64,000 bases of DNA, taken from Candidatus Portnoybacteria bacterium. GTDB lineage: Bacteria > Patescibacteriota > Minisyncoccia > Portnoybacterales > GWB1-42-6. The notes below the pieces were generated by a model. That model did no database searches and was not told where the DNA came from. It saw only the letters and a list, made by a program, of their open reading frames with translations. The stretch is from NCBI GenBank assembly GCA_028688325.1, contig JAQTYI010000001.1, positions 168,820 to 232,819 of the forward strand, written 5' to 3'. This document shows, piece after piece, positions 8,229 through 8,841 of the stretch (its first letter is position 1; each line of letters begins with the position of its first letter). The position numbers and the translations under genes were made by a program.

Positions 8229-8272
8229 CGCTCTTCTTGCGGGTCTAACAGTTTTTCACGACCCCGTAAGAA

Positions 8273-8363
8273 AGCGGAGGGGGCGAGATTCGAACTCGCG
8301 AGGCTCTTGCGAACCTTCCGGTTTTCAAGACCGGTTCCTTCAGCCGCTCAGACACCCCTCCGC
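8273..8363 (-). tRNA. tRNA-Ser (anticodon TGA).
   Basis: Acceptor stem GCGGAGG/CCTCCGC, anticodon loop CTTGAAA, long variable arm, TTCGAATC T-loop. Confidence 0.8.
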
Positions 8364-8450
8364 TTCTTTACGGGGTAACTGCTCCGCTTCAACCGCTCAC
8401 ACACGCCTCCCGATTATTTAAGAGATGCGGGATTCGGCTCCGACTAAAAT

Positions 8451-8705
8451 TTATCTCAATGATTCGCGAAGCATTATCTTTAAGGCCTTTCTCTCTTTTG
8501 ATGTTTTAAAATACCCTTCTCTTCTTTTAGCGTCTCTTTTGCTTTTAAAAGATTCGTAAAAGATCAGTTCCCAGGGAACATATGGTTTTGTCGATAGAAC
8601 TTCTGTATTATTGTGCCTATGAATTCTTTCCCTCAAGTCAGAAGTATATCCAATATAATTTTGGCCGGAATTACTTAAACTTTTTAAAAAATATACATAA
8701 AACAT
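8451..8705 (-). CDS. GIY-YIG nuclease family protein.
   Basis: FYVYFLKS...NYIGYTSDLRERIHRHN is a GIY-YIG motif in an 84-aa ORF between the two tRNA-Ser genes. Confidence 0.75.
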   Translation of the reverse strand: MFYVYFLKSLSNSGQNYIGYTSDLRERIHRHNNTEVLSTKPYVPWELIFYESFKSKRDAKRREGYFKTSKERKALKIMLRESLR

Positions 8706-8752
8706 GTTTTTGATTTGAGGCGCCCCGAACCGAACTATGTTCTGGTTCGGGG

Positions 8753-8841
8753 CGGAGAGGGAGGGATTCGAACCCTCGAGACGGTTTTATCCATCTAACA
8801 GATTAGCAATCTGCCGCTTTCGGCCACTCAGCCACCTCTCC
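8753..8841 (-). tRNA. tRNA-Ser (anticodon GCT).
   Basis: Acceptor stem GGAGAGG/CCTCTCC, anticodon loop TTGCTAA, long variable arm. Confidence 0.8.

Follow-up and report, generated by a model that had tools for sequence, protein, structure and literature searches.

Background

The bacteriophage T4 protein SegB is a free-standing GIY-YIG homing endonuclease encoded within the T4 transfer RNA (tRNA) gene cluster, and its presence biases the inheritance of the neighbouring tRNA region (PMC2330249). Here we describe a locus of Candidatus Portnoybacteria, a member of the candidate phyla radiation (CPR), in which a GIY-YIG gene encoding only 84 amino acids (aa) likewise lies within an array of tRNA-Ser genes. 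We analysed the whole stretch of 64,000 nucleotides (nt) that contains the locus; we call this stretch the window, and window coordinates refer to it throughout. On balance, we favour the view that the tRNA-Ser unit has been invaded at least twice, once by a selfish GIY-YIG cassette and once by a complete tRNA-Ser(UGA) gene that split a resident one and brought a leader/trailer helix with it.

Judged by its arrangement, SegB is the nearest functional analogue of the cassette, as both are free GIY-YIG genes that stand between tRNA genes and that are present or absent between close relatives. SegB is, however, phage-borne, whereas the window cassette is chromosomal. Seg-type proteins are also far longer than 84 aa and carry a DNA-binding region beside the catalytic domain, and to our knowledge SegB is accompanied neither by a conserved leader hairpin that pairs with a tRNA CCA end nor by nested tRNA genes. 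At the level of sequence, the best match is to the UPF0213 or Slx1-like proteins (BH0048, PDB entry 1ZG2, and EF2693, 1YWL), which are stand-alone GIY-YIG domains of ~80-110 aa. They have been treated as repair or structure-specific nucleases, with no role assigned (PMC1564403), and in the literature that we searched no tRNA linkage, cassette behaviour or leader hairpins are described for them. Endonucleases of the I-TevI type share the catalytic fold, and collaborative homing pairs a free-standing endonuclease with a group I intron, as for mobE/I-TevIII (PMC2790892). Several loci related to ours do have a group I intron in the upstream tRNA, but at the window locus there is no intron, the open reading frame (ORF) lies outside the tRNA and the protein has no DNA-binding domain.

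Three further systems offer partial parallels. Genomic islands and prophages integrate into tRNA genes by means of an integrase and leave partial tRNA copies behind (reviewed in PMC9897764). With these the window shares tRNA genes as targets, partial copies and a restored functional tRNA; but integrase-type elements run to kilobases, bring a recombinase gene and leave the 3' part of the tRNA in duplicate, whereas the window units measure 0.1-0.7 kb, have no recombinase and consist, in the nested case, of a whole tRNA gene in a loop of an old one, both halves of which remain. In Archaea, split, permuted and multi-intron tRNA genes have been described (PMC4390854, PMC3218864). These resemble our locus in that the interruptions fall in loops, adjoin long helices and are linked to mobile elements, but they are functional and are spliced by EndA at a bulge-helix-bulge, whereas the outer gene in the window appears to be a decaying pseudogene whose function is provided by the inserted copy. 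Finally, short hairpin modules that stand alone or flank a small nuclease gene, as at four of the relatives' genome loci that we compared with the window (designated by L-numbers; here L029, L034, L019 and L030), recall REP elements with their RAYT transposases, although RAYTs are HUH/Y1 enzymes and REPs are not tied to tRNA ends. Our literature search returned no account of tRNA-linked minimal GIY-YIG cassettes in CPR bacteria, nor of nested bacterial tRNA genes; both this widespread variant of a free-standing nuclease cassette and the replacement of tRNA genes in place are apparently undescribed.

Results and discussion

Exchange of a GIY-YIG cassette at the 3' end of a tRNA-Ser gene

Read along the minus strand, the array comprises an intact tRNA-Ser(GCT), the cassette with its leader hairpin and GIY-YIG ORF, a tRNA-Ser 5'-half fragment, and an intact tRNA-Ser(UGA) enclosed by an inverted repeat (Table 1). 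A preliminary description, made from the letters alone, had listed these elements, and all of them were recovered from the minus strand, either exactly where it had placed them or 1-3 nt away. The fragment that it quoted is present too, although it had given 33 letters for a range of 32 nt.

The most informative relative is L081, whose contig was located via a neighbouring 170-aa membrane protein (99% identical). It aligns with the window at 97.5% over 5861-8421 and at 99.6% over 8751-12405, and within ~750 nt of the junctions the flanks are ~99.6-99.7% identical, with only 2 mismatches over 7658-8417. Between these flanks, the 329 nt at 8422-8750 are replaced in L081 by 296 nt without homology, from which another GIY-YIG protein is predicted (77 aa, Pfam E=1.6e-9, 35% identical to that of the window). 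The left junction, at which the alignment diverges, comes directly after ...CCTCTCCGCC of tRNA-Ser(GCT), and the right junction lies 7 nt before the 5'-half fragment. A co-conversion gradient beside the cassette in L081 was considered and rejected, as the mismatches are not clustered at the junctions. The T-arm-like remnant in the cassette tail (Table 1) is inside the swapped segment and may, from its resemblance to a T arm, be a tRNA 3'-end scar brought along from a donor site.

Other relatives have the site empty or filled differently. Portnoybacteria at a greater distance (L082/L083 and L167) lack the nuclease gene, and 10-11 nt separate their tRNA-Ser(gct) from tRNA-Ser(tga). A third type of GIY-YIG gene is found upstream of tRNA-Ser(gct) in L168, L169 and L170; at the site that is filled in the window, L168 lacks an ORF but has leader hairpins resembling those of L081. 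In a syntenic trio from Thermodesulfobacteriota, the cassette follows Ser(tga) in L029 and L034 and Ser(gct) in L032, which has nothing beside Ser(tga); hairpin pairs that stand alone, with no ORF, also occur within the trio. Presence or absence with sharp junctions at a fixed site between close relatives, as is seen with homing endonucleases, is thus found in L081, L082 and L167. The preliminary description had proposed that the cassette is mobile and has homed into a tRNA array, to be checked against genomes lacking the gene. L082 and L167 are such genomes, and together with the swap in L081 they mark the cassette as a discrete, exchangeable unit; homing as the way in which it moves is something that we infer. 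The comparison of these loci gives good support to mobility, or at the least to a turnover of cassettes at tRNA ends.

A tRNA-Ser(gct) 5'-part-like fragment (GGAGAGGTGGCTGAG.GGGTTG...), followed by a hairpin, stands 50-100 nt upstream of tRNA-Ser(gct) in L082 (~2706-2760) and L084 (~2925-2860, minus strand), relatives without a GIY-YIG gene there. At the same position, L168 and L170 have a GIY-YIG ORF together with a two-hairpin insert and the 5' part of a tRNA, and the fragment in L082 and L084 may represent a scar from ORF loss. A gene for a large serine recombinase (Resolvase, Recombinase and Zn_ribbon_recom domains) abuts tRNA-Ser(gct) in L084 (881-2560) and L086 (270-1949), and the relatives that have it lack tRNA-Ser(tga) at the locus; it is another sign that the tRNA-Ser locus is an integration hot spot.

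Linkage to tRNA genes and leader hairpins across the family

From 561 relatives, mostly of CPR bacteria with some of Thermodesulfobacteriota, we examined 80 genome loci containing 83 homologous ORFs; the search for loci was made with an alignment of eight family sequences. A tRNA on the same strand ends no more than 300 nt upstream of 47 of the 83 ORFs. With a strict T-arm motif the count is 43 of 76 upstream on the same strand, as against 2 of 76 on the antisense strand. The ORFs stand directly 3' of tRNA genes with at least 15 different anticodons, and proteins that are 84-86% identical adjoin different tRNAs. At least seven more loci (L006, L007, L036, L047, L057, L059 and L064) have an upstream tRNA whose anticodon loop holds an intervening sequence, which is why ARAGORN misses these tRNAs in its default mode. 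The group I intron model RF00028 scores above its gathering threshold in four of them (L059, 88.6 bits; L036, 72.9; L064 and L047, 69.9 each) and below it in L006, L007 and L057. These introns lie at 2146-2336 in L059, 2098-2299 in L036, 2148-2353 in L064 and 2090-2312 in L047, and the tRNAs interrupted by introns directly upstream of GIY-YIG cassettes in CPR genomes include those for Asp, Met, Asn and others.

The order of elements between tRNA and start codon recurs: the tRNA end, a hairpin (H1), often a second hairpin (H2), a short spacer containing GCC, and the ATG. In most loci the H1 stem starts at the tRNA discriminator, and its 5' arm takes in the CCA or CCC. Across 17 aligned loci, six of the nine predicted H1 pairs show compensatory changes, and the outermost pairs follow the 3' end of the tRNA itself (GCCA...TGGC, CCCC...GGGG or ACCA...TGGT). 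The window cassette has a single leader hairpin, identical in sequence to the H1 of L014.

Hairpin pairs also occur in tandem arrays of up to four copies, and solo after tRNA genes without an ORF. Tandem or solo hairpins were seen in L034 (2259-2500 and 2892-3070), L029 (2881-2935), L019, L030 and L004. By analogy, solo and ORF-bearing hairpin pairs resemble non-autonomous and autonomous mobile elements. The window itself holds GC-clamped CCCCG...CGGGG hairpins, among them those 40-65 nt downstream of tRNA-Gly(GCC) and tRNA-Arg(GCG), at 39025-39056 and ~9560-9595; four of the five found adjoin tRNA genes. Exact direct repeats of tRNA 3' ends, 13-21 nt long, flank some cassettes (L003, L052 and L062).

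A minimal GIY-YIG protein

The match to Pfam PF01541 covers residues 1-72 of the 84-aa protein; a second Pfam match, to T5orf172 (E=4e-4), covers the same residues and so adds no independent domain. Residues Y3, Y5, Y17, G19, R27, H31 and E63 are invariant in an alignment of 15 family members. A profile search of PDB sequences placed the protein nearest to UPF0213 BH0048 (1ZG2, E=3.6e-12), EF2693 (1YWL, E=8.5e-9) and SLX1 (7WME, E=1.5e-5). The single domain fits the minimal prokaryotic Slx1-like/UPF0213 type of ~80-110 aa with no accessory domain. The ORF stops at residue 84, with no C-terminal DNA-binding module of the I-TevI/Seg type; no NCBIfam or PHROG family matched it, and the group I intron endonuclease model TIGR01453 scores related ORFs at only 21.7-22.7 bits, against a cut-off of 56. 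By these sequence criteria the protein is assigned to the prokaryotic Slx1-like minimal GIY-YIG branch, not to the I-TevI/Seg type. Its sequence is 100% identical to that of a protein annotated in a Candidatus Portnoybacteria metagenome-assembled genome. The family is large, with 5,158 cluster representatives (50% identity) at E<=1e-3, and nearly all of the best 150 of these are 80-130 aa long. Genomes can hold several divergent copies: two occur in the 64-kb window, and tandem pairs are found in L010, L023, L024 and L108.

Kinship with UPF0213 proteins and SLX1, not with homing endonucleases, might suggest that the protein is a host factor co-transcribed with tRNAs, serving Slx1/YhbQ-like DNA repair or the processing of RNA or tRNA, with nothing selfish about it. 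The hairpins would then be ordinary processing or terminator structures of tRNA 3' flanks, which would suit their presence after tRNAs that have no ORF, and the variation would be ordinary recombination. A link to RNA metabolism has indeed been suggested from a prokaryotic Slx1-like domain fused to a TrmH-like tRNA methyltransferase (PMC1564403). We nevertheless consider a host factor unlikely. A housekeeping gene is not expected to be swapped for a 35%-identical paralogue amid flanks of ~99.6-99.7% identity, and the gene is moreover absent from the same site in close relatives, exists in several divergent copies per genome and changes its tRNA partner at ~85% protein identity.

A resident tRNA-Ser(UGA) split by a second gene

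The first 24 nt of the 5'-half fragment match the 5' end of tRNA-Ser(TGA) at 21 positions, where 0 such matches are expected from dinucleotide-preserving shuffles of the window. The Rfam tRNA model gave no match to the fragment at E<=10, but the fragment is too short for this covariance model; the check by covariance model proposed in the preliminary description is therefore uninformative, and the mismatch search with shuffles was used instead. The fragment matches the functional tRNA-Ser(tga) of L170 at 30 of 34 positions, as against 27 of 34 for the adjacent tRNA. When the 34 nt after the inverted repeat (8258..8225) are appended to it, the whole aligns lengthwise with the L170 gene, and this 3' remnant again agrees better with L170 (~20 of 22) than with the inner tRNA (~15 of 22; both counted from the printed alignments). 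From the closer match to L170 and the 3' continuation, we take the fragment to be the 5' half of an older gene that was split by an inserted tRNA-Ser(TGA). Read from the L170 alignment, the break in the outer gene falls between U33 and the anticodon, and the T arm and the 3' strand of the acceptor are lost. L168 has the same nested design, with an outer 3' half fuller than that of the window. On this alignment evidence, we conclude that the fragment belongs to the remains of a resident tRNA-Ser(UGA), split just before its anticodon by a complete tRNA-Ser(UGA) with its inverted repeat.

The preliminary description had read the fragment differently, as a partial tRNA duplication left behind when the cassette homed into the array. 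Proximity favours such an origin, as the fragment begins 7 nt from the right junction of the cassette, and exact 5'-part duplications do flank the GIY-YIG ORFs of another subfamily (tRNA-Glu and tRNA-Trp); in that subfamily, however, the copy is upstream of the ORF, not downstream. The fragment also lies outside the swapped segment and is retained, with one change, in L081 beside a different cassette, and its 3' partner is found beyond the adjacent tRNA. In L168 a homologous fragment is present with no ORF between it and tRNA-Ser(gct); the earlier description had itself named such a relative, with the fragment and without the GIY-YIG gene, as evidence against this link. Together with the comparison to L170, these observations largely refute the duplication, to which we give very little credence.

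We give slightly less again to the possibility that the partial tRNA copies are att scars of integrative elements driven by a recombinase, with the GIY-YIG ORFs as cargo or bystanders. The tRNA 3'-end repeats of L003, L052 and L062 would fit such scars, as would the large serine recombinase that L084-L086 have beside tRNA-Ser(gct). The window locus, however, has no recombinase gene next to it, the flanked units are only 0.3-0.7 kb long with the nuclease as their sole coding content, and the fragment, a 5' half to which a 3' half corresponds, is not an att repeat, so that the features by which integrase-type elements are recognized are not seen at this locus.

The inverted repeat around tRNA-Ser(UGA)

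The imperfect inverted repeat reported in the preliminary description was recovered as 22 nt of 91% complementarity that extend the acceptor helix. Its arms, 8261-8282 and 8355-8376, consist of the 7-bp acceptor stem and a leader/trailer extension of 15 positions, 14 of which pair (Table 1). We refer to this extension as the bracket. The corresponding brackets are CTATTGAAAGC/GCTTTCAATAG in L082 (11 of 11 pairs), TAATAAAAGC/GCTTTTATTG in L167 (11 of 11 pairs) and CAGAGC/GCTCTG in L168 (6 pairs), and the four versions retain pairing through compensatory changes at several positions. The bracket is absent from the CCA-encoding tRNA-Ser of the L170 type. L082 and L167 carry it although their loci have no GIY-YIG gene, and the helix therefore does not depend on the nuclease.

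Few tRNA genes have long brackets: among 139 called in the window and in the loci compared with it, 13 pairs or more were found only in the window (Ile, 18; Ser, 14; Pro, 13), in L081, which is nearly a duplicate of it, and in L008, and the maximum in a shuffled control was 11 pairs. Several brackets end in ACCCCG...CGGGGT, as do hairpins downstream of some cassettes; these shared ends may reflect either a common processing signal or common ancestry. Helices formed by leader and trailer are known to act in the processing of ribosomal RNA precursors (PMC11404451), and the bracket covaries as such a processing helix should. The inverted repeat accompanies this CCA-less kind of tRNA gene and most likely serves the precursor RNA as a processing stem.

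L008 and the tRNA-Pro/tRNA-Gln locus described below hint that the inverted repeat may derive from an outer anticodon stem; at the Ser locus, the repeat and the outer stem are distinct. The tRNA-Ile(TAT) of the window (35454-35568) has a perfect leader/trailer helix of 19 bp (CTTTGACCCGCTATCTTTT / AAAAGATAGCGGGTCAAAG); the 5 nt between the acceptor stem and the start of this helix are the discriminator and CCCC, and the surroundings showed no halves of an outer tRNA.

Other nested tRNA loci

Two further nested loci were found in the window (Table 1). The first, at tRNA-Glu, follows the same logic and includes a second GIY-YIG gene. In most of the metagenomic relatives at least 55% identical to this ORF, the 5' part of tRNA-Glu is repeated upstream, exactly or nearly so, and a full tRNA-Glu follows downstream. 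The two-hairpin mini-insert with its tRNA stub is present in all four Glu-type loci that we read base by base, and some Glu-type loci have outer 3' halves with a second mini-insert in the T loop. Between the inner tRNA-Glu and the outer 3' remnant lies a GC-rich, strongly self-complementary stretch of ~190 nt (14932-15118), with a similar stretch at the same place in L101; it gave no Rfam match, and by eye it lacks the conserved core motifs of group I introns.

At the second locus, a gene resembling tRNA-Gln(UUG) has an intact tRNA-Pro(CGG) within its anticodon region. This outer gene retains perfect acceptor, D and T arms and CCA, and a hairpin insert of ~30 nt (51785-51815) follows its D arm; the gene may be dead or may still be processed in some way. 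L168 and L170 have an insert analogous to the mini-insert of the Glu-type loci in the D loop of a tRNA-Ser(gct) copy. In L008, a tRNA-Ser(cga) bracketed by an inverted repeat lies within an outer tRNA; beyond the 3' end of this outer tRNA come H1, H2 and a GIY-YIG gene. ARAGORN in its intron mode, run over all loci, gave mostly artefacts that join neighbouring tRNAs, and was used as a pointer only (to the Pro-in-Gln locus and L008). Every insertion that we saw is at a cloverleaf loop or at the CCA end, and of the window's three nested loci, two have a GIY-YIG gene next to them.

As the least credible explanation we regard a functional tRNA, split or with an intron, in which the outer halves would be the exons, the 'intron' would hold the inner tRNA and the inverted repeat would be a splicing helix: although the helix of the inverted repeat is stacked on an outer stem of 7 bp (AGCAGTT/AACTGTT), although the predicted fold of the Pro-in-Gln gene, with its intact outer arms and CCA, is one continuous helix, and although other CPR genomes have group I introns in the anticodon loops of tRNAs beside cassettes, the outer tRNA-Ser(UGA) cannot be functional because it has lost its T arm and acceptor 3' strand, its junction as we read it lacks bulge-helix-bulge geometry (its two sides have 0 nt and 7 nt), RF00028 found no ribozyme, either in the window at the gathering threshold or in 8100-9000 and 14800-15700 at E<=10, and we know of no tRNA splicing endonuclease in bacteria. 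The search for an intron or split tRNA that the preliminary description had recommended has thus yielded neither a group I intron nor a functional split tRNA at the locus.

A model for cassette movement and tRNA gene replacement

Our preferred reading, invasion of the tRNA-Ser unit both by a selfish cassette and by a nested tRNA gene, builds on the anatomy of the array, the family-wide tRNA linkage, the boundaries of the cassette, the empty and alternative sites, the switching of tRNA partners, the nested genes and the covariation of both helices. Beyond these, we infer the role of the nuclease as a cutter of tRNA loci, its substrate and its tie to the nested insertions.

We propose that cassettes of this family insert 2-3 nt after the tRNA discriminator, such that the first stem pairs with the discriminator and the CCA or CCC of the tRNA. 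They have no convincing promoter of their own and are therefore probably expressed by read-through from the tRNA promoter. In the window, the array would form one transcription unit, from the promoter-like site at 8891..8863, for which the evidence is weak, to the palindrome at 8182-8221, and the ORF would be released from the array transcript by tRNA processing. The nuclease would then cut tRNA loci free of the cassette, recognizing either a sequence or a DNA structure, and the break would be repaired from a cassette-bearing copy with the conserved tRNA genes as homology arms. Such homology arms would allow different cassettes to replace one another at one site. The lack of a DNA-binding domain, together with the kinship to structure-specific SLX1, makes a structural target plausible, for which H1 or a hairpin or cruciform of the tRNA gene, with a junction at the base of the stem, is a candidate. 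In the same unit, the resident tRNA-Ser(UGA) would have been split by the incoming complete gene, and the inner gene would now supply the tRNA.

Several points weigh against this picture. About a third of the homologous ORFs have no tRNA within reach of the tools used, and tRNA 3'-end direct repeats were ruled out as a general cassette signature, as they occur in only 3 of 12 inspected loci. The protein is without the DNA-binding domain that gives classical GIY-YIG homing endonucleases their specificity. Cleavage by proteins of this family, like its target, is putative. IMG/VR holds no relatives on viral contigs, so that no vector is in view. Promoter-like sites are as numerous in the region as shuffled sequences lead one to expect, and the site at 8863..8891 is weakly supported, being no better than chance. 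The inverted repeat may act as RNA or as DNA, either of which would fit its sequence. The weakest step is the connection between nuclease activity and the nested tRNA insertions: no GIY-YIG gene is near the tRNA-Pro locus, and nested insertions may consequently have an unrelated mechanism.

More tentatively, we entertain a wider idea, which at present seems to us doubtful but worth stating, namely that hairpins and an ~80-aa Slx1-like nuclease together constitute a new prokaryotic class of minimal mobile elements, in which solo hairpin pairs would be the non-autonomous members, the target would be a structure, and the resulting breaks would drive nested tRNA replacement in CPR bacteria. The targets in this case would be the CCA end and the D, anticodon and T loops, and the process would amount to an unrecognized route by which tRNA genes are replaced or horizontally exchanged.

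If our reading is correct, the smallest GIY-YIG proteins, now filed under unknown function or repair, would count among them a selfish family of CPR bacteria that is both tRNA-linked and very large. The nuclease would be site-specific even though it has no DNA-binding domain, and the pairing of a hairpin with the universal CCA end would be a possible determinant of that specificity. Nested genes at three loci in 64 kb, and in other CPR lineages, indicate that bacterial tRNA genes can be killed and replaced where they stand, the old halves staying behind as datable fossils. Such fragments, and interrupted genes that remain hidden, can distort counts of tRNA genes. When streamlined genomes exchange sequence, tRNA genes may act as portable homology arms. 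Our findings also touch on an old proposal, by which interrupted tRNA loops are tied to mobile DNA. As natural filled, empty and alternative sites are at hand, and the nuclease has only 84 aa and targets of ~100 bp, the model is readily testable.

Other features of the window

The coordinates of the array and of the other nested tRNA loci are collected in Table 1. The promoter-like site upstream of tRNA-Ser(GCT) is a weak candidate, by its match to consensus, for a single promoter of the whole tRNA-Ser array.

Table 1. Features of the tRNA-Ser array and of the other nested tRNA loci, in window coordinates
Feature	Position	Strand	Remarks
Promoter-like site, TTGACT-17-TAAAAT	8863..8891	-	~20 nt upstream of tRNA-Ser(GCT); 10/12 consensus match
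tRNA-Ser(GCT), intact	8842..8750 (ARAGORN); 8841..8753 (Rfam tRNA)	-	60.9 bits (Rfam); 3' end (discriminator + CC) is the left cassette junction
GIY-YIG cassette: leader hairpin, ORF, 29-nt tail	8422..8750	-	Segment exchanged between strains
Leader hairpin H1 (GCCCCGAACCAGA-loop-TTCGGTTCGGGGC)	8722..8753	-	Perfect 11-bp arms; 5' arm starts at tRNA discriminator
GIY-YIG ORF, 84 aa, catalytic domain only	8451..8705	-	Pfam PF01541, E=6.4e-14
T-arm-like remnant GGAGCCGAATCCCGC in cassette tail	8427..8441	-	Weak; 8-nt exact match only (CGAATCCC) to tRNA-Ser(GCT) T arm
tRNA-Ser 5'-half fragment (positions 1 to ~33 of outer tRNA-Ser(UGA))	8377..8410	-	Match to L170 tRNA-Ser(tga)
Left (leader) arm of inverted repeat, ACCCCGTAAAGAAGC	8362..8376	-	The 15-nt spacer between fragment and inner tRNA
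Inner intact tRNA-Ser(UGA), no encoded CCA	8275..8361	-	Rfam, 53.1 bits; ARAGORN
Right (trailer) arm of inverted repeat, GCTTTCTTACGGGGT	8261..8275	-	Includes discriminator; 14/15 positions pair
3' remnant of outer tRNA-Ser(UGA): anticodon TGA, anticodon-stem 3' strand, variable arm	8225..8258	-	
Bidirectional terminator-like perfect palindrome, 20-nt arms (100%)	8182..8221	.	Closes the array
Nested tRNA-Glu locus	14906..15520	-	Same logic, second GIY-YIG gene
Outer tRNA-Glu(UUC) 5' half, exact copy of positions 1-35	15520..15486	-	
30-nt two-hairpin mini-insert (CACCCTGCGGGTGA CCACCCGAAGGGTGG)	15485..15456	-	Followed by a 6-8-nt tRNA stub
Second GIY-YIG ORF, 82 aa	15443..15195	-	44% identical to the first; ends 3 nt before intact tRNA-Glu(UUC)
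Intact inner tRNA-Glu(UUC)	15191..15120	-	
Outer tRNA-Glu 3' remnant	14931..14906	-	~190 nt beyond inner tRNA-Glu
Nested tRNA-Pro(CGG) locus	51617..51838	-	Third nested locus
Intact tRNA-Pro(CGG), bracket CCCCGCACCAAAA/TTTTGGTGCGGGG	51750..51680	-	Within anticodon region of tRNA-Gln(UUG)-like gene

Beyond the palindrome, at 5644-8156, the window has a PqqD-like gene and two radical-SAM/SPASM genes, which have the look of a peptide-maturation cluster. Here the window and L081 have clearly diverged further, to 97.5% identity with the mismatches in clusters, than in the flank on the other side of the array (99.6%).

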